A stretch of 64,000 bases of DNA from a virus (Duplodnaviria; Caudoviricetes), in IMG/VR virus record IMGVR_UViG_3300031555_003590, positions 1-64,000 of that record, one strand, 5' to 3'. Of this stretch, positions 1,044-54,053 are shown piece after piece. The translations under genes and the position numbers were made by a program. The stretch's first letter is position 1; the number at the start of each line of letters is the position of its first letter. Under the pieces are notes generated by a model. The model made no database searches, was not told where the DNA came from, and saw only the letters and a list, made by a program, of their open reading frames with translations.

Positions 1044-2873
1044 TTATTCATATTGGAGGTAAATTCTACCAGTAGTTAGAGCAGTAGTACCAGCAGTCAT
1101 AGCACCAGTACCAGCATATATACGTCTAGCAGCAGCAGTACCAATAGCAGGTTCAGCAGGATACAATGTACTAGTGGATACAGATGAACCAAGTACACTA
1201 GTTTTAGTAGCAGTATTACCAAGCGTAATAGTACCTCTTGCAGATCCAGATGTTCCAGGAGCTACTGCAAGTACCTGAACATTTGATACAGCAGTTGCAG
1301 TATCAGAATTATATGCTTTACCATAGATATACTTAGATTGTGCTAAATAAGTATGTGCATTAACTGCAATAGTAGCACCAGCAATAGCAGTATAAGTAGT
1401 AGCATTGCCAATTGTAACAGTTCCAGGAGCTGATGAAGCAGTACCAGGACTCATTGATGCTATAATATAATTACCTAAAGTTGAACTACTAGCTGTATAT
1501 GATTTACCATAAATGTATCTACTGCCATTCATATAAATATGACCAGTATGAGTAGTATTGCCAGTAATAGTGACACTTGAACCTTTTAGGTTAGTAAGTA
1601 TTGAAGTGTTTCCTAGTTCTAAATTACCAGCAGCTGAACTAGCTGTTCCTGCATTCATTTTAGCTATAATTAAACTAGATACGGCTGTAGCTGTAGCCGA
1701 AGCATATGCTTTGCCGTAAATATATTTACCAGTATTCATTGTAAAATTGCCATTACTAGTAGTTCCACCAGTACCTAAAGTAATAGCACCGCCATCAGTA
1801 TTAATATTAATACCTGTAACAGTAGTTCCATTTGATTTAGCTTGGATTTCATTATTATCAATTTCAATATGGGCAGATGTTCTAGTACCACCTATAACAA
1901 GTGCAGGACCATTATCTGCAATACCAGACATATCTGTTGTTTTAGATAATACTAATGTTCCAGTAAATGTTTTATCACCAGCAATAGTTTGTGCACCAGT
2001 TGTAATAGCACCAGCTGCTGAAGCACTGGCAGCTGCCATTGCAATAGCACCAGAAGAAATAGATAGACCATTTCCTGCAGTAACTTTAACGTGACCATAG
2101 TTACTAGTAGTACCAACCCCATATGTAGTATCACTTGATGCATGAGAAGTAGGAGCTTTTCCATTTAACTGAGTTTGAATAGCAGATGTTACTCCATCTA
2201 AATATCCTAGTTCAGTACTAGTAACTGCTGATACAGCTACTTTTCCATTTGCATCTGAAACTAATGCTCTACTAGCAGTTAGATTACTACTAGTAATAGT
2301 AGTAGCACCACCAGTAATAGTAGCTTGTGCTCCTATATCTACTGGAGTGGGCTTATTATGTTCACCATAAATTTTATATCCATTAGAATTATCATCTATA
2401 CAATCATAAAGTATAAGAGAATTTGATAAATCAGAAAAAGTGTCATGATTAGAATTATATAAATTTAATCCACGTCTAGTAGTAACATCTGATTTTACAT
2501 TAAGATTTTGAATTGAAACAGTATTATCAGTATTTAATACACGCATTTCTGATTCAGTATTATTATCAATTCCTGTGATAAGTGGATTATTTTTTTCAAT
2601 AGTTAAATTACCACTCATTGTATCTCCGGTTTTCTTTACTGCTCCAATATCATCTGGGGTAATAGGATCACTACCGCTACTAGTATGTGTACTAGCATGT
2701 GATGGAACCATATCAGTAGGTACTTTATTATTTTCATCTGTATATAATATATTTACTTTCTTACCATTATTATCTACTAATGCTGATACTGTAGTTCTAG
2801 GATAAATATAAGTACCATCATCATTATGCAAAGTTTGAATTTTTGCATTTGTGGCCATATAATTCACCTCCAT
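1044..2873 (-). CDS. Tail fibre protein, paralog B
   Basis: Ser/Thr/Gly/Ala-rich fibre motifs (GDTMSGNL, IYGEHNKPT, ELGYLDGVTSAIQTQLNGK, YGHVK). N- and C-termini are shared with 4610..6220. Confidence 0.8.
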   Translation of the reverse strand: MEVNYMATNAKIQTLHNDDGTYIYPRTTVSALVDNNGKKVNILYTDENNKVPTDMVPSHASTHTSSGSDPITPDDIGAVKKTGDTMSGNLTIEKNNPLITGIDNNTESEMRVLNTDNTVSIQNLNVKSDVTTRRGLNLYNSNHDTFSDLSNSLILYDCIDDNSNGYKIYGEHNKPTPVDIGAQATITGGATTITSSNLTASRALVSDANGKVAVSAVTSTELGYLDGVTSAIQTQLNGKAPTSHASSDTTYGVGTTSNYGHVKVTAGNGLSISSGAIAMAAASASAAGAITTGAQTIAGDKTFTGTLVLSKTTDMSGIADNGPALVIGGTRTSAHIEIDNNEIQAKSNGTTVTGININTDGGAITLGTGGTTSNGNFTMNTGKYIYGKAYASATATAVSSLIIAKMNAGTASSAAGNLELGNTSILTNLKGSSVTITGNTTHTGHIYMNGSRYIYGKSYTASSSTLGNYIIASMSPGTASSAPGTVTIGNATTYTAIAGATIAVNAHTYLAQSKYIYGKAYNSDTATAVSNVQVLAVAPGTSGSARGTITLGNTATKTSVLGSSVSTSTLYPAEPAIGTAAARRIYAGTGAMTAGTTALTTGRIYLQYE

Positions 2874-3013
2874 ATAAATTTTTATTATTTAAATAATATT
2901 TATTCATAATTATAAATACAATCCCCTTTCTATATAATATTTGTTACTTTTTTATTACTTTAATGGTTCCGAATGAAATTATATATTCTCATAATAGGAA
3001 GGAGTGAATATAA

Positions 3014-3163
3014 TTGAAGAAAAATAAAAAGAAACTTAATGGTAGAGATGATGTTATTATTGTACATGAAGAAAATCCATATCTTAAACATAAGAAAAAT
3101 AGTAAAAAATATTCCATAATTAAAAAAATTTTTAAACCAATAAGATATAATGAGAAGGGATGA
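3014..3163 (+). CDS. Small basic hypothetical protein (49 aa, TTG start)
   Basis: Promoter motif at 2977-2989, RBS AGGAAGGAG, open frame MKKNKKKLNGRDD..., followed by a hairpin. Confidence 0.45.
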   Translation: MKKNKKKLNGRDDVIIVHEENPYLKHKKNSKKYSIIKKIFKPIRYNEKG

Positions 3164-7667: not shown

Positions 7668-7710
7668 ATGTTAAATCTCTCCTTATTTATATTAAATAAA
7701 GTTTATTTTA

Positions 7711-7861
7711 GAACAGCTGGAACTGGCACCCTCCCCATATTCGTTGATGCATATGTCATTCTCAATTAGTGCACGAGATATGTGTGGCCCGTCTGACCAT
7801 TTGTCGATAATACATCCGTCCTCACGGGTGCGGATGTAGTGTCTGTTGTAAACTCGTCCAT
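7711..7861 (-). pseudogene. High-GC frameshifted, truncated paralog of the 6981..7667 chaperone N-terminus
   Basis: AGGAGG RBS, MDEF/YNRHYIRTREDGCIIDKWSDG...DICINEYG../QFQLF aligns with MEEMFYNKHYITIGENNCIIKGFSD...DICINEQGGYQFRLF. Confidence 0.8.
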
Positions 7862-7873
7862 GTGCATTCCTCC

Positions 7874-44700: not shown

Positions 44701-44826
44701 TTAAATGGATTTTAATTTACGAAGTTGACGATTAAGTTTTCGAATAATATTTTGATTCTCAACTGGATTAATACTTAACTTTTTAATTCGATTTTCTAGA
44801 TATAAAATTCTTACATTATTACTCAT
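44701..44826 (-). CDS. 41-aa basic hypothetical protein
   Basis: AGGAGG RBS; MSNVRILYLENRIKKLSINPVENQNIIRKLNRQLRKLKSI. Confidence 0.65.
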   Translation of the reverse strand: MSNNVRILYLENRIKKLSINPVENQNIIRKLNRQLRKLKSI

Positions 44827-44894
44827 AATTATATCCTCCTATATAATATTTTATGACGGAGTTTTAGTAAATATGTAATATTATTTATAATATT

Positions 44895-44980
44895 GAGCCA
44901 TAGGGCTTTCACCTATGGGAGTAAAGGTTGGATTAGTGCTGCAGCCACTTACCAACAGTCTGGACTCTGCCGACTAAGCA
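44895..44980 (-). ncRNA. tRNA-like structured RNA (D-arm-like and T-arm-like hairpins, no acceptor stem)
   Basis: GCTTAGTCGGCAGAGT resembles the D-arm; GTTGG/CCAAC with AGTG/CACT; CCATAGG-TGAAAGC-CCTATGG. Confidence 0.4.
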
Positions 44981-45035
44981 TAGATAAATTTTACTTTACT
45001 TTTTCATATTATGTACTTTTAAGAGATTTTCTTTT

Positions 45036-45113
45036 TGGTCAAAGTTAATAGGAGTCGAACCTAATCCCTCCGCCGTATGTGGCAGCGTGCTATTTCCGCT
45101 ACACTAAACTTCT
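45036..45113 (-). pseudogene. Atypical or degenerate tRNA with 3' CCA and a 6-nt ACATAC anticodon loop
   Basis: GGTTCGACTCC T-arm, GTGT/GCAC D-stem, CTGCC/GGCGG stem, weak acceptor stem. Confidence 0.6.
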
Positions 45114-45218
45114 AATCTCTGCTACACTAGTCTCGATCGCTGTACATTCAATCATTGAAACTAGTTTGTACAATGTAGCATACATAAATATGGCTTTATA
45201 CTCACTACTCAATATTAT

Positions 45219-45294
45219 TGGTGTGCCTGGCGGGATTCGAACCCACGACCCTTTGATTAAAAGTCAAATGCTCTACCGACTGAGCTACAGGCAC
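45219..45294 (-). tRNA. trnK: tRNA-Lys(TTT)
   Basis: GTGCCTG...TTTGA-CTTTTAA-TCAAA...GGTTCGAATCC...CAGGCAC-ACCA. Confidence 0.97.
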
Positions 45295-45300
45295 ATGTTT

Positions 45301-45450
45301 AAAAGGATTCACCGTGGGCTACTCACACATAGTTCTGTCGGTTAGTGTTACCGACGTACTATTATATGTTTTCACCTTTAGTATATAGGCTCACTACTTC
45401 CTATATACCCAGGGGCACGGCTACTCTACTCCCTGTAAATTAAACATATA
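45301..45450 (-). ncRNA. Unidentified ~150-nt structured RNA with possible pseudoknots
   Basis: TATATGTTT/AAACATATA, CAGGG/CCCTG, GTATATAGG/CCTATATAC and GTCGGT/ACCGAC stems; loop CCGTG pairs with 3' CACGG. Confidence 0.6.
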
Positions 45451-45514
45451 TTGTATAATTATCTTTGGCACACAACACACATCAAAGATGTTATATAATA
45501 TATGTAATTTATAA

Positions 45515-45590
45515 TGGCTGGGCTAGATGGATTCGAACCATCGGAATGCAGGAGTCAAAGTCCTGTGCCTTACCACTTGGCTATAGCCCA
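45515..45590 (-). tRNA. trnQ: tRNA-Gln(TTG)
   Basis: TGGGCTA...CAGGA-CTTTGAC-TCCTG...GGTTCGAATCC...TAGCCCA-GCCA. Confidence 0.97.
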
Positions 45591-45670
45591 ATATATAAAA
45601 AGGTTTAATCTATATCTCCCACCTTCAAGGATGCACTTTTAGTAGCATTACTTCGGGAATAATTTCCCTA

Positions 45671-45746
45671 TGGCTCCCCCAGTTGGACTCGAACCAACGA
45701 CACTGCGGTTAACAGCCGCATGCTCTACCGACTGAGCTATGGAGGA
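45671..45746 (-). tRNA. trnN: tRNA-Asn(GTT)
   Basis: TCCTCCA...TGCGG-CTGTTAA-CCGCA...GGTTCGAGTCC...TGGGGGA-GCCA. Confidence 0.97.
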
Positions 45747-45751
45747 ATATA

Positions 45752-46118
45752 AAGTACAGACAGATCAACATTTTACACACTAACCTAGTCCTAAGACTGC
45801 TAGTACCTCTCCAAACAATTATTGCTTTCCACGCCTCAAATGTTGATGTGACTCTGCCTGATATTTACTCTGAGCAGTCACTACCCAGTTGTCAACCCCC
45901 ACTTAATCCTGCCTATTCTAGGTATCGATGTGATTGACTGCTTATGCCTTTAAGCATCGGATATCCTACTTCACCCATTTCAGATAATCCGCATAGCCTC
46001 CTACTTGGCTCTTATAGGCTTGATTTGCATTTTTTGAATAGAGTGCTACTCCCACACGTTCCCATCTCTATTACTGTAGTCAGTAATCCAGCCAGGATAT
46101 ATCATTTCACCTGGACTT
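45752..46118 (-). ncRNA. Unidentified ~370-nt highly structured RNA
   Basis: GC-enriched, no ORF in the track, about 10 complementary stems including crossing pairs (see findings). Confidence 0.65.
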
Positions 46119-46120
46119 AA

Positions 46121-46461
46121 TGGTGCGGGTAGCCGGACTCGAACCGGCATGGATTACTCCGAGAGATTTTCATCACACTCTTGGTTATGAATTCCCAAGC
46201 CAATTCAAAGAATTGTTGTGCGCTGGAATACGTTTTTACCATATCATTCCTGACTTAGGTAGTAGGTCTATATTCTCTACACATTTATCAAATTATTTCT
46301 AATTTGAATTTAGCACGGCGTTCCCATTGAGCCATTCACCGTTTTAGCCTACTCCACTTATAAAGTTTCCTTCATAAGGCTCCACCTTTACTCAAGGCAA
46401 CTTACTATAGCAAGTTCTCAATGGAGAAGTCTCTTGTGTCTGCCAATTTCACCATACCCGC
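46121..46461 (-). tRNA. trnL: tRNA-Leu(TAA), intron-split; exons 46461..46427 and 46170..46121 (85 nt mature)
   Basis: GCGGGTATGGTGAAATTGGCAGACACAAGAGACTT^AAAATCTCTCGGAGTAATCCATGCCGGTTCGAGTCCGGCTACCCGCACCA. Confidence 0.93.
46171..46426 (-). mobile_element. Group I intron (256 nt, trnL/IC3-like) in the Leu anticodon, U^AA
   Basis: P1 CTT/GAG with U.G; P2 CTTATGAAG-GAAA-CTTTATAAG; P3 AGTAGG/CCTACT; P7 GAATA/TATTC; terminal G at 46171. Confidence 0.88.
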
Positions 46462-46471
46462 ATATTATATA

Positions 46472-46975
46472 TCAAATATATTTAAAATAAGTTTTCTCAA
46501 TTTTTTGTGCAGGAATTTTATCTATTTTATTATTTTGAATAGATGCACCATATTTACCTGCACATTCTTTACTACAGAAATGAGGTTTATTTCTATTTCG
46601 TTTATCAGTTTGAGCTTTAGTTGGAGTAAACATCTTACCACATATCGGACATTTAATATCTTTAACTTCAACTCTAATTGCATCATTTTTGGTATGTTCT
46701 TTACGAGGTTGGATATCTAAATTATGAGGCAAATTATTAACTACATTCCAATCTTTATGATGAATGGTATCAGTATCTTTTATAAGTTTATTTATTTCAA
46801 TCTCTTTTAACGCTTTTGGGTAAGAAATTGTTTTTGTCTTACCTTTTATATTTTTTGATTTAGATGAGTCATTTAAAACTATATGTAATCTACCATCATC
46901 TCTTAGATATGGACCGTAAACTTTATCATATTCTGAATATAATTTCAGAATAGGACTTAAATCTTTATTATCCAT
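46472..46975 (-). CDS. Free-standing HNH endonuclease with C-terminal Zn finger
   Basis: IHHKDWNVVNNLPHNL......EH; CPICG...FCSKEC. Confidence 0.85.
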   Translation of the reverse strand: MDNKDLSPILKLYSEYDKVYGPYLRDDGRLHIVLNDSSKSKNIKGKTKTISYPKALKEIEINKLIKDTDTIHHKDWNVVNNLPHNLDIQPRKEHTKNDAIRVEVKDIKCPICGKMFTPTKAQTDKRNRNKPHFCSKECAGKYGASIQNNKIDKIPAQKIEKTYFKYI

Positions 46976-47010
46976 ATTATTAAAACCTCCAATATATTAA
47001 GATGAAATAG

Positions 47011-47038
47011 CTGTGTCTGCCAATTCCACCACACCGGC
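47011..47038 (-). pseudogene. Orphan 5' half of a tRNA-Leu
   Basis: GCCGGTGTGGTGGAATTGGCAGACACAG versus the intact exon GCGGGTATGGTGAAATTGGCAGACACAA (24/28 identical). Confidence 0.8.
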
Positions 47039-47162
47039 AGATAAATGGCACTAACGTAGTTCCCACGGCTCTTTTTTCACCCTTCTTTATATAAAGTTAG
47101 GATGCCTCTCGCACTAGCTGTGCTAAGGTTTTAAGAATACTATATAGTATTCTTATTGCAAT

Positions 47163-47239
47163 TGGTGGGCCTTCAGGGGCTCGAACCCTGGACCTGCAGA
47201 TTATGAGTCTGATGCTCTAACCGGCTGAGCTAAAGGCCC
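47163..47239 (-). tRNA. trnI2: tRNA(CAT), most likely Ile2 (lysidine type)
   Basis: GGGCCTTTAGCTCAG...CTCATAA...AAGGCCC-ACCA; the acceptor resembles Firmicutes Ile2 and lacks the fMet C1:A72 mismatch. Confidence 0.9.
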
Positions 47240-47290
47240 AAATATATTGTTTTAATAAATTTAGATATATTGTAATTTAAATTCAAAGAA

Positions 47291-47308
47291 ATAATATATA
47301 ATTGAAAA
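47291..47308 (-). promoter_or_regulatory. Early-type promoter of the tRNA operon
   Basis: TTTTCAATTATATATTAT about 50 nt upstream of the first tRNA, after a terminator at ~47370-47402. Confidence 0.65.
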
Positions 47309-47410
47309 ATGAGGTTTATTTTTTAACCGTAAATATTTGTATATCTTTATTCACTTTTTATTTTAAAAATAGGATGGGGCAATTTTATATACCCCATCCT
47401 ATGATTATGA

Positions 47411-48646
47411 TTACTTCTGATTCTTAATAAAGTTTTTGACACGCTTGAAAGCTTCATCAGAACCAATAAGTCCTGCATTGTAATCAATGATGATCTCACT
47501 GATAACTTCATGACCATTATAAGATACAATCTTATTAGCCATATCATTATCAATTGCAATACCAGCATTCCGAAGATCACTTACGAAACTGGCACAATCA
47601 GTTTCGATAGCTACAGCATTGATATCTTCTTCAGAAGCTACATTCATGGGATCAGCTACTACAAGTTCTTCAGGTTCAACTTCTTCAGTTTCATCCTTAA
47701 TAAGATATGCACTGATTTTATCACAGGCATTCACTGCAGAGATCTCACCATTCTTGAATTCACTCAGAATATCATTGATGTTTTTATCATTGGCATATTC
47801 CATCAGATTAAATACCTGATCTTCATTGAGATGAACATCCTTGCTACTAAAGATATCCTGAACATTATCCATGAACTCAGTGACATTAGTAGCATGAACC
47901 TTATTATCAGTTTCTTCTTCAGGTGCATCATTGAGTACATTAACAACTTCATTAGGTTCAATATTACCATTGACAGGACTACCATAGCAGTACTGATAAG
48001 CTTCTCTAAGATAAGAAGTCATCTGATAAGAATGATTGGTGAGAATATCATCAGCCATTGCAACGTGATCATCTTGAACATTGATTTCATTATATACAAA
48101 GCCAACCTTATTAGCAAGCTTATACATAACTTCATTGAGTTCATTTACTTTCTTTTTCTTAAGGAATTGAGGAACTTCAACATCTTTCAGATCTTCATGA
48201 AGATCTTCAATGGACTTCTGAGTATTGATCCATTCAGAAGTATCCATTGCAGCCTGAAAGATTTCTTCCCATAACTTAGCAGCTTTCTTCATTCGATCAG
48301 TTGTTTTCTTACTTACCTTGTGAATTTCAGATATAAAATCTTCTTCAGGTTTATTGTTGTTTTCGATAAGATGTTCTTGTTTATGATCTTTAGATTTATT
48401 TTTCCCAATTCTAGGAATCTTAATATCGAAATTTAAAGAATCATCGAACCAGGAAGCAGAAGCCAATGCAATGAAAGCAGAACTAGTAAGAACTTCGATA
48501 CCATTTCTGGCAATAACATCAATATATTTATTACCAGTAGTATTTTTCTTCAGAACATTATCGAGTAGAATATTGCTACAAATACCAGTACCATAAATAG
48601 CAACAGCAGAGATTTTACCAACAGGGATAGTGATTTCTTTTTTCAT
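47411..48646 (-). CDS. Hypothetical acidic protein with N-terminal hydrophobic segments
   Basis: GGAGG RBS; 411-aa ORF. Confidence 0.75.
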   Translation of the reverse strand: MKKEITIPVGKISAVAIYGTGICSNILLDNVLKKNTTGNKYIDVIARNGIEVLTSSAFIALASASWFDDSLNFDIKIPRIGKNKSKDHKQEHLIENNNKPEEDFISEIHKVSKKTTDRMKKAAKLWEEIFQAAMDTSEWINTQKSIEDLHEDLKDVEVPQFLKKKKVNELNEVMYKLANKVGFVYNEINVQDDHVAMADDILTNHSYQMTSYLREAYQYCYGSPVNGNIEPNEVVNVLNDAPEEETDNKVHATNVTEFMDNVQDIFSSKDVHLNEDQVFNLMEYANDKNINDILSEFKNGEISAVNACDKISAYLIKDETEEVEPEELVVADPMNVASEEDINAVAIETDCASFVSDLRNAGIAIDNDMANKIVSYNGHEVISEIIIDYNAGLIGSDEAFKRVKNFIKNQK

Positions 48647-52754: not shown

Positions 52755-54053
52755 ATGGAAAATATTAAAACTAAAATTATTCAAGGTACAAAAGATAAAA
52801 TTGGTAAAACTGTAATTGAACCTTTAAATTCATTAGTAGATCAAAATATTTCTGATATCACAACCACTATTGGATCATTCGTAATTAGATCTATTAGAGG
52901 TAGATTTCAAAGAAGTATTACATTTACTATTGGTAATAGATATGCCGATATTTGGATGGAAGAAGCTCTATATGGCATTTTATATAAATATAATAATATT
53001 AAGAAAAGTAGTAGATTGGAATTAACTAATAATGCTAAAGTTAATGATGGAACTGGTATGTATTATCGACTTGATGATGGAACTCATAATTTGAAATATC
53101 GCAATTATGAAATTTTATTAGTAATTCAATCTACTAATACTGCAGGATTAAATGGAAGAAGTTATCCTAGTAGAATTTATACTATCATCACATATAACCT
53201 AAGCATTGATTTTGTTAGAGATTTTGAACGAGATATGATTTCTCATCGTAATAGTTTATTAAAAATTAAAGCTGATTCTCCTGTTGTAAATGTATATAGA
53301 GATCTTCATGAAGGTGATGGATACACTTATTGGGAGAGAATGGGAAATATTCCTAAACGTAGATTGAATACAGTATATCTTCCTAGAGAAACTAAAGAAT
53401 TAATTGTTAATACTGTAAATGAATTCTTTTCTAATAAAGAATATTATAAAAAACATGGAGTTGCTCATAATTTAAAAATTCTTATGCACTCGCATCCAGC
53501 TGGAGGAAAAGATACAATAGCTAGAATGATTGCATCTGAATGGAATAGAAATTTATATTACTGCACAGGTGGTAAAAATGGTTTATTTATTCCTAATGCA
53601 ATTACTGATAATAGTGATGATGTTAATTATCCTGTATTTTTAATTTCTGATATTGATAGATATCCTTATTTAATTAATGAACCAGATGTAAATCCAGACG
53701 ATGAAGGATCTAATAGAGAAGAAAAAATTAAACATAAACAAACTTTTGCAAATATGATTAATGCATTAGATGGTATTTTATCTGGTGAAGATAGAATAGT
53801 TATTATGACTACTAATCATATTGAAAAGTTTAGTGAAACATTTCTTCGTCCAGGTAGAATAGATTTAATTCTTAAATTAGATTATGTTTGCCCAGAAGTA
53901 TTTAGAAAATACGTTCATGATTTTTATGGTGTTGATTTACCAAAAAATATTAAAGTTAAAGAAAAGACTACAATTGCTATGATGCAATCTGATGTAGTAT
54001 TTATGAAGATGAGTGTTGAAGAGTTTCTAAATAAGTATACAATTAAAGAATAA
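52755..54053 (+). CDS. BCS1-like AAA+ ATPase with atypical Walker motifs
   Basis: RRLNTVYL, SHPAGGKD (Walker A), LISDID, INALDG, MTTNH...LRPGRID. Confidence 0.8.
   Translation: MENIKTKIIQGTKDKIGKTVIEPLNSLVDQNISDITTTIGSFVIRSIRGRFQRSITFTIGNRYADIWMEEALYGILYKYNNIKKSSRLELTNNAKVNDGTGMYYRLDDGTHNLKYRNYEILLVIQSTNTAGLNGRSYPSRIYTIITYNLSIDFVRDFERDMISHRNSLLKIKADSPVVNVYRDLHEGDGYTYWERMGNIPKRRLNTVYLPRETKELIVNTVNEFFSNKEYYKKHGVAHNLKILMHSHPAGGKDTIARMIASEWNRNLYYCTGGKNGLFIPNAITDNSDDVNYPVFLISDIDRYPYLINEPDVNPDDEGSNREEKIKHKQTFANMINALDGILSGEDRIVIMTTNHIEKFSETFLRPGRIDLILKLDYVCPEVFRKYVHDFYGVDLPKNIKVKEKTTIAMMQSDVVFMKMSVEEFLNKYTIKE

Follow-up and report, generated by a model that had tools for sequence, protein, structure and literature searches.

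Folded RNAs that remain unexplained recur in the tRNA clusters of phages, as in species 1 and 2 of phage T4, GOLLD, ROOL and the theta ribozymes. GOLLD and ROOL are large RNAs encoded beside phage tRNA genes, with sizes of ~580 and ~800 nt, respectively. The locus analysed in the current study is a 374-nt segment (the gap) between the genes for tRNA-Leu(UAA) and tRNA-Asn(GUU) of a phage from IMG/VR (record IMGVR_UViG_3300031555_003590; 292,119 bp, rated 100% complete, 28.3% GC). The first 64 kb of this record form the window, i.e. the whole stretch of DNA that was analysed, to which all positions refer; nt 1 of the gap RNA corresponds to position 46120. An earlier reading made from the sequence alone (the original prediction) had proposed a single pseudoknotted, ornate RNA of ~370 nt at this site. 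The gap itself is real and lies on the minus strand, with the exact limits given in table 1. Theta ribozymes, which are hepatitis delta virus (HDV)-like, often follow phage tRNA-Leu, which is among the three commonest tRNA types in this respect (Kienbeck et al. 2024, PMC10879173).

A structured RNA is a reasonable reading of the gap, because it is non-coding, is part of a tRNA operon, is enriched in GC and belongs to no Rfam family. On account of its predicted transcription, its lack of coding capacity and its unusually high GC content, it probably yields one or more folded RNAs. The preferred explanation, to which a probability of roughly 0.5 is assigned, is that the gap specifies a co-transcribed, modular spacer RNA, which would be freed by the tRNA-processing enzymes and whose helices would insulate the neighbouring pre-tRNAs. 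The gap is then a plausible orphan spacer RNA, and not a demonstrated ornate RNA.

Base composition provided the best evidence for a functional RNA. The GC content of the gap (A121 G100 U99 C54) is 41.2% compared with 28.3% for the genome, which places it at the 98.9th percentile of 374-nt windows, and a 150-nt profile stays at 41-45% across the entire gap. The HNH gene of the same island has only 25-30% GC, and the intergenic DNA on the promoter and terminator sides of the island has 19-21%. When the 68 segments of non-coding DNA in this genome (median 23.5%) were ordered by GC, the tRNA island came second. The excess of G over C (100:54) resembles that of the adjacent group I intron (60:36). 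Stop codons occur in all six frames, leaving no open frame on either strand. The gap is thus selected as RNA, or was until very recently.

Two more GC-rich segments free of open reading frames (ORFs) were observed in the window, at 7668-7873 (41.7%) and 753-1043 (38.8%); neither showed sequence kinship with the gap.

Transcription of the gap is suggested by its position, since it shares its strand with five tRNA genes (minus strand, within 47239-45219) and no terminator-like site was found in the operon ahead of the hairpin at 44692-44666. The flanking tRNAs were called with ARAGORN (introns being allowed for tRNA-Leu) and Rfam. An operon transcript running from ~47300 to this terminator would include the gap. 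Enzymes cutting at the 3' end of tRNA-Leu and at the 5' end of tRNA-Asn (the RNase P site) would then release a free RNA of ~370 nt, or smaller pieces of it. Such an RNA would most likely be a stable passenger of the tRNA cluster, for which species 1 and 2 of T4 serve as the model, and may persist as a stable species. Its helices would let each adjoining pre-tRNA, above all tRNA-Leu with its intron, fold on its own and would provide clean processing sites, and the high GC content would be maintained because the RNA has to fold.

The folding data point to a chain of independent modules, comprising a two-hairpin module at the 5' end, a Y-shaped module at the 3' end and a loose middle, and not to one interlocked fold. 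According to the folding predictions, the two terminal modules are the only parts of the gap that are individually more stable than shuffled sequences (z -2.44 for nt 1-52, and z -2.51 for the 107 nt of the 3' module, nt 260-366). At the 5' end, hairpin 1 was present in both the minimum free energy (MFE) and the centroid folds with a pair probability of ~0.6, and it is followed by hairpin 2. The 3' module, with pair probabilities of 0.8-0.96, is capped by a junction with two hairpins (nt 294-308 and nt 317-342). Its stems correspond to two pairings that the original prediction had recognised as neighbours, namely CAGGCAGA (nt 261-268) with UCUGUCUG (nt 357-364), and the 10-bp pairing of AUCAACAUUU (nt 274-283) with AAAUGUUGAU (nt 348-357). 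The choice of the minus strand was also sensible, as the tRNAs are encoded on it and the RNA folds to -94.7 kcal/mol, compared with -75.4 kcal/mol for the plus strand.

A few comparative data were obtained, and only for the 5' end. Sequencing runs of animal faeces in which the phage has a low depth also contain other contigs that match the tRNA 3' end together with nt 1-45, 1-61 or ~1-108 of the gap, and contigs aligning to 46013-46146 are 84-97% identical. One variant contig carries four substitutions in the stem of hairpin 2 (7 bp), and each of them preserves pairing. Two of them, C38U (46083) and G47A (46074), are compensatory and convert a C-G pair to U-A; the others, C45U (46076) and A49G (46072), convert G-C to G.U and U-A to U.G, respectively. 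An abundant foreign contig carries C38U, giving a wobble pair, and G10U, and because the latter breaks a pair of hairpin 1 the support for that hairpin is weak.

Ten contigs carry the neighbouring 411-aa protein, and seven of these reach at least partly into the gap, with an identity of 99.7-100% where they could be compared. Only one single nucleotide polymorphism was detected in the gap, an A>G change at nt 187 (position 45934, in locus L017). It leaves 187 paired with 226 as G.U in the helix 183-189/224-230, and is not part of the 8-bp crossing helix of the original prediction. Contigs of the faecal runs were also found as identical fragments of this phage, with 45781-45942 almost uncovered, and no RNA run was listed as containing the stretch.

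Between the terminal modules, two hairpins are predicted with good pair probabilities (table 1), and neither had comparative support. The sequence AAGUAGGA forms the loop of the first (nt 111-126), and its second copy lies within the 15-17-nt loop of the other (nt 130-163); chance alone would give roughly one duplicated 8-mer in a sequence of this length. In the ambiguous middle region two pairings compete. The local option consists of GUCAAUC/GGUUGAC (nt 183-189/224-230, probability 0.76) and the hairpin CUGGGUAG-UGA-CUGCUCAG (nt 233-251, probability 0.80), while the pairing of the original prediction, AGCAGUCA (nt 179-186) with UGACUGCU (nt 241-248), has a probability of 0.03.

Several results weigh against a selected spacer RNA. 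Over its whole length the gap has an MFE (-94.7 kcal/mol) at the level of shuffled sequences (z = -0.70), and the middle 150 nt gave z values of -0.8 to -1.8, with competing folds. In the phage, plasmid, viral, metagenome and genome collections searched, the only homologues were copies from this same phage with 99.9-100% identity. Obvious debris, namely orphan tRNA halves and extra intron cores, is present in comparable HNH/tRNA-Leu islands of other phages. The island is a recent accessory acquisition in a variable region, since the nearest related phages lack tRNAs, and the high GC content of the gap could be partly inherited rather than selected.

These points lend themselves to a second explanation, which is a serious one yet distinctly less probable than the spacer RNA: the gap may be debris, i.e. 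a decaying remnant of a tRNA, intron or mobile element left by repeated recombination driven by the homing endonuclease and the intron, still GC-rich only on account of its youth, and with no present function. The upstream neighbour, tRNA-Leu(UAA), has a long variable arm, an encoded CCA end that abuts the gap and a 256-nt insertion after U34. The 5' exon ends in U and the insert in G, and the junction CUU/...G/AAAA (slashes mark the splice sites) restores the anticodon UAA; ARAGORN labelled the gene Phe(gaa) because the junction can shift by 1 nt. Default tRNA finders, and Rfam at the gathering score, miss this intron-bearing gene. The insertion matches RF00028 weakly (15.3 bits) and contains the core GUGUAGAGA...ACCUAAG...UAUGG, which is common to tRNA-Leu introns of other phages; similar cores are present in four phage contigs (L005, L007, L008 and L013), and a gene built alike in a fifth (L049). 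Its sequence thus identifies this insertion as a group I intron.

A total of 65 homologues of the HNH protein were found. Nine distinct contexts of these homologues were fetched and scanned, and in eight of them (loci L040-L043, L045 and L049-L056, with L044 as the exception) only a few bases separate the gene from a tRNA-Leu(UAA), which may or may not contain an intron. Like segB of the T4 tRNA cluster, the HNH protein probably acts as a free-standing, tRNA-Leu-specific homing endonuclease. An orphan 5' half resembling tRNA-Leu (GCCGGUGUGGUGGAAUUGGCAGACAC...) lies immediately upstream of its gene, at ~47010-47046 (minus strand); foreign contigs of the faecal runs align there and connect it to tRNA-Leu-like sequence (depth peak at 46996-47076). 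In an analogous island, in L049, the HNH gene and an intron-bearing tRNA-Leu are followed by 860 bases without genes (2273-3132). This stretch contains the orphan 3' half of a tRNA, a further group-I-like core (GGUGUAGAG..., UCUGGUAAAGA, GUCCAGAUACC) and a tRNA-like sequence, missed by the tRNA calls, whose anticodon is CAU. Because of the orphan halves and the extra intron core in these two islands, HNH/tRNA-Leu islands are taken to gather recombination debris.

The island is also specific to its lineage. The nearest related phages (G001 and G002, tubulin 63% identical) have no tRNA genes and no match to the gap, and in the complete 289-kb relative G002 (locus L025) nothing within 10 kb on either side of the tubulin gene corresponds to the 43.7-49.1 kb region of the window. 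Moreover, other contigs of the same faecal samples have the initial 45-108 nt of the gap in common with this phage, as would be expected of a co-converted flank.

Against an origin as debris, nothing in the gap is recognisable as a tRNA: ARAGORN found no tRNA-like fold at thresholds of 95, 85 and 75% with introns allowed, and RF00005 gave no match at E <= 10. Nor is there anything recognisable as a group I intron, whereas the neighbouring intron gives its weak match. Local alignments of the gap to the other spacers, to the intron and to tRNA-Leu stayed at shuffle level, and paralogy was therefore rejected. The uniformly high GC over 374 nt, compared with the low GC of the embedded HNH gene, and the compensatory change in hairpin 2 also argue against decay, and in favour of the modular spacer RNA.

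The search for homologues of the gap was extended along several routes. A blastn search (word 11) of 50,697 phage records, T4 included, returned only matches to tRNAs and two short chance matches; the one in a Staphylococcus phage was judged to be chance because it lies inside an ORF without a nearby tRNA. Plasmids gave no blastn match to the gap, and its own genome held no second copy. Viral contigs reached through the 167-aa HNH protein, a 206-aa P-loop protein and the 411-aa protein yielded nothing useful, the last having no relatives among 5.8 billion proteins. With the 3' end of tRNA-Leu as an anchor, ten viral loci were obtained, none with a similar trailer. In the contexts of the HNH homologues, no sequence resembling the gap was found downstream of tRNA-Leu(UAA). 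A match of 79% over 48 nt in locus L045 was rejected, as it covers the tRNA 3' end and ~20 nt before entering an ORF, of which the gap is no pseudogene. Pattern scans had no matches for nt 11-37 (viral contigs), for nt 25-44 and nt 3-26 (metagenome contigs), or, in viral and genome contigs, for the hairpin 1 stem plus linker with a free loop and for the two AAGUAGGA loops. A covariance model of the 3' module (R1, nt 260-366) found only itself in 27 loci and four large phage genomes.

The third explanation is that of the original prediction, a single RNA of ~370 nt in which a long-range stem is crossed by an 8-bp helix to form a pseudoknot, making it a new ornate RNA comparable to GOLLD and ROOL. 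The complementary segments listed for it all exist, i.e. CCAGG 7-11/CCUGG 25-29, AUUACUG 34-40/CAGUAAU 45-51, AAUAGAG 49-55/CUCUAUU 78-84, GCCUAU 102-107/AUAGGC 205-210, AGCC 111-114/GGCU 123-126, CGGAU 130-134/AUCCG 159-163 and AUGCUU 164-169/AGGCAU 172-177, in addition to those of the middle region and 3' module given above. A stem enclosing three hairpins together with the crossing helix is possible, and forcing either of the long-range helices costs only 3-4 kcal/mol. The size, GC enrichment and place beside phage tRNAs also fit the habit of GOLLD and ROOL.

The number of these segments is, for the most part, what shuffling produces. A sequence of 374 nt offers ~70,000 position pairs, and when Watson-Crick stems were compared with those of 300 dinucleotide-preserving shuffles, 13 stems of at least 6 bp were observed vs 12.4 +/- 3.4, six of at least 7 bp vs 3.1 (p = 0.07), and two of at least 8 bp vs 0.8 (p = 0.18). 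A perfect 10-bp stem was present in 4% of the shuffles (p = 0.04). The long-range GCCUAU/AUAGGC stem has a pair probability of 0.16, and the crossing helix is improbable because the pairings 183-189/224-230 and 233-240/244-251 compete with it. Two of the local pairings also fared poorly: AAUAGAG/CUCUAUU (probability 0.02) shares its AAU with the hairpin at nt 34-51, and AUGCUU/AGGCAU as written would leave a 2-nt loop. AGUA motifs, which had been taken as loop-E-like repeats, were not enriched (5 vs 2.7 expected, p = 0.14), and a loop-E reading gave no consistent motif by eye or in Rfam. There were no GNRA or UNCG tetraloops among the predicted hairpin loops.

No covarying homologues of the gap were found in the collections searched. 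For the RNA as a whole, this result and the shuffle-level folding come close to refuting the original prediction, leaving the two end modules as the part that folds better than shuffles. A single ornate RNA is therefore unlikely. The gap is a new candidate without a family, and the architecture that was proposed for it is unsupported. Slightly less probable again is the bolder proposal that all 374 nt form a large structured phage RNA of a new class, perhaps with a crossing like that of P3/P7, which would be excised from the tRNA operon and act in trans (e.g. as a decoy for a host nuclease or a tRNA-targeting defence, or as a ribozyme), and which would seem an orphan only through sparse sampling of its lineage.

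Known RNA families gave no match to the gap. In Rfam 15 no family was found at the gathering score (window), at E <= 10 on 44800-47600, or at E <= 10 with the gap alone, and this result covers GOLLD, ROOL, raiA, OLE, RNase P, tmRNA, SRP, 6S, T-box, riboswitches and self-cleaving ribozymes. The permissive searches returned only tRNAs and noise (e.g. snoR442, plus strand, 22 bits). The original prediction was thus right that the gap bears no signatures of RNase P, tmRNA, SRP or group I introns, and that it could not be matched to GOLLD or ROOL. As to RNase P, a P4-like AAGUCC with a bulged U (nt 3-8; AAGUCCAGG, nt 3-11) was considered and rejected, as it pairs locally in hairpin 1 and not over a long range; T-box and hammerhead readings likewise gave no consistent motif by eye or in Rfam.

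The absence of an RF00028 match on the gap at E <= 10 carries some weight, because the same kind of search detects the real intron next door. That intron lies 45 nt upstream of the gap, and the helix order 102-107/179-186/205-210/241-248 has the formal appearance of the P3/P7 crossing seen in group I introns. However, the core motifs of related introns (GUAGAGACU, ACCUAAG, UAUGG and AGUCCAGAC) are absent from the gap, and the would-be P7 and P3 strands are 17 nt apart. There are also no exons to join, since the gap is bordered on one side by the complete 3' end (CCA) of a tRNA and on the other by the complete 5' end of the next. As regards self-cleavage, HDV-like theta ribozymes are frequent at phage tRNA-Leu (PMC10879173), but a permissive home-made HDV-like descriptor found nothing at the 3' end of tRNA-Leu (46120), its match numbers being equal to those in shuffles, and the only match inside the gap runs into tRNA-Asn. 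Hammerhead, twister, pistol and hatchet ribozymes gave no Rfam match. It is thus very improbable that the gap is a catalytic RNA, whether of a group-I-like kind, degenerate or novel, or of a self-cleaving kind that would trim the tRNAs next to it.

Some further observations concern the remainder of the operon and the related phages. At ~45126-45173 (minus strand), ~46 nt past tRNA-Lys and not adjacent to a tRNA end, there is a compact candidate for a nested double pseudoknot of HDV-like topology (UUGUACA...ACUAGU...UUC-AAUGAUU-GAA-UGUACAG...ACUAGU); the descriptor behind it is unspecific, with equal match numbers in shuffles. A weak tRNA-like element at 45040-45112 (minus strand) scored 19.5 bits against RF00005 (threshold 29), and was called Cys(aca) by ARAGORN at relaxed settings. 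The 41-aa ORF near the terminator had no homologues among 5.8 billion proteins. In G002, the homologue of the 432-aa gene at 52755-54053 of the window is interrupted by ~1.08 kb, possibly an intron or intein.

Table 1. Features of the gap and of the surrounding tRNA operon (window positions; nt, numbering of the gap RNA).
Feature	Window position	nt	Strand	Description
Inter-tRNA gap	45747-46120	1-374	minus	374 nt, from CCA end of tRNA-Leu to first base of tRNA-Asn
Hairpin 1 (predicted)	46090-46117	4-31	minus	CCAGG/CCUGG plus AG/CU across bulged U6; 13-nt loop
Hairpin 2 (predicted)	46070-46087	34-51	minus	AUUACUG-ACUA-CAGUAAU; pair probability 0.8-0.99
Small hairpin (predicted)	45995-46010	111-126	minus	AGCC-AAGUAGGA-GGCU; pair probability 0.77
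Hairpin (predicted)	45958-45991	130-163	minus	CGGAU(U)AUC...GAUAUCCG; pair probability 0.7-0.8
Ambiguous middle region	45870-45938		minus	Two competing pairings
3' Y-shaped module (predicted)	45757-45860	261-364	minus	8-bp and 9-10-bp stem, 6-nt bulge (AGUCAC), two-hairpin junction
tRNA(CAU)	47239-47163		minus	tRNA calls
HNH gene	46975-46472		minus	167 aa; just upstream of tRNA-Leu
tRNA-Leu(UAA)	46461-46121		minus	256-nt intron; upstream neighbour of gap; found by ARAGORN only with introns allowed
tRNA-Asn(GUU)	45746-45671		minus	Downstream neighbour of gap; 67.2 bits
tRNA-Gln	45590-45515		minus	tRNA calls
tRNA-Lys	45294-45219		minus	tRNA calls
ORF, 41 aa	44701-44826		minus	Strong AGGAGG ribosome-binding site; just before terminator
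Terminator hairpin	44692-44666			Perfect 11 bp, bidirectional; closes tRNA operon

If the gap does yield a stable RNA, it would be one more, and an unusually large, example of the unexplained folded RNAs of phage tRNA clusters, in this case from a jumbo phage of the animal gut. Its setting, directly after an intron-bearing tRNA and a probable tRNA-associated homing endonuclease, could help to show how such RNAs originate, as debris or under selection, and what role they have. The gap is best regarded as a single-lineage orphan candidate for RNA-seq and probing and not as a discovery, the kind of element being already known.

Compared with the known systems, the gap resembles the theta ribozymes in starting directly after a phage tRNA-Leu, but it shows no nested double pseudoknot from the tRNA 3' end and no HDV-like match in Rfam. 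With GOLLD (RF01998) and ROOL (RF03087) it shares the large non-coding stretch by tRNA genes, in a phage of a gut/rumen-type habitat; unlike them, it is shorter (374 nt), matches neither model, has unsupported long-range and pseudoknot pairing, and folds over its whole length at shuffle level. The group I introns of phage tRNA-Leu(UAA) genes offer a further comparison, the intron 45 nt upstream being alike in size, GC content and excess of G over C and lying in the same island, whereas the gap lacks the core motif, the RF00028 match and the exons, and has no similarity to the introns of L005, L007, L008, L013 and L049.

Species 1 and 2 of T4 (rnaC and rnaD) differ from the gap in being 119-139 nt long and located at the end of the cluster, whereas the gap spans 374 nt between two tRNAs. 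No homology to rnaC or rnaD was detected by blastn, and the model R1, which represents only nt 260-366, had no match in the T4 tRNA locus (L038). The arrangement is nevertheless alike in several respects. Both the T4 species and the gap are non-coding and are part of a phage tRNA cluster, with the tRNAs encoded on their own strand, and both are accompanied by a free-standing homing endonuclease (segB in T4, probably the HNH protein here). Both are also bounded by tRNA-processing sites, at which the gap RNA would be released.

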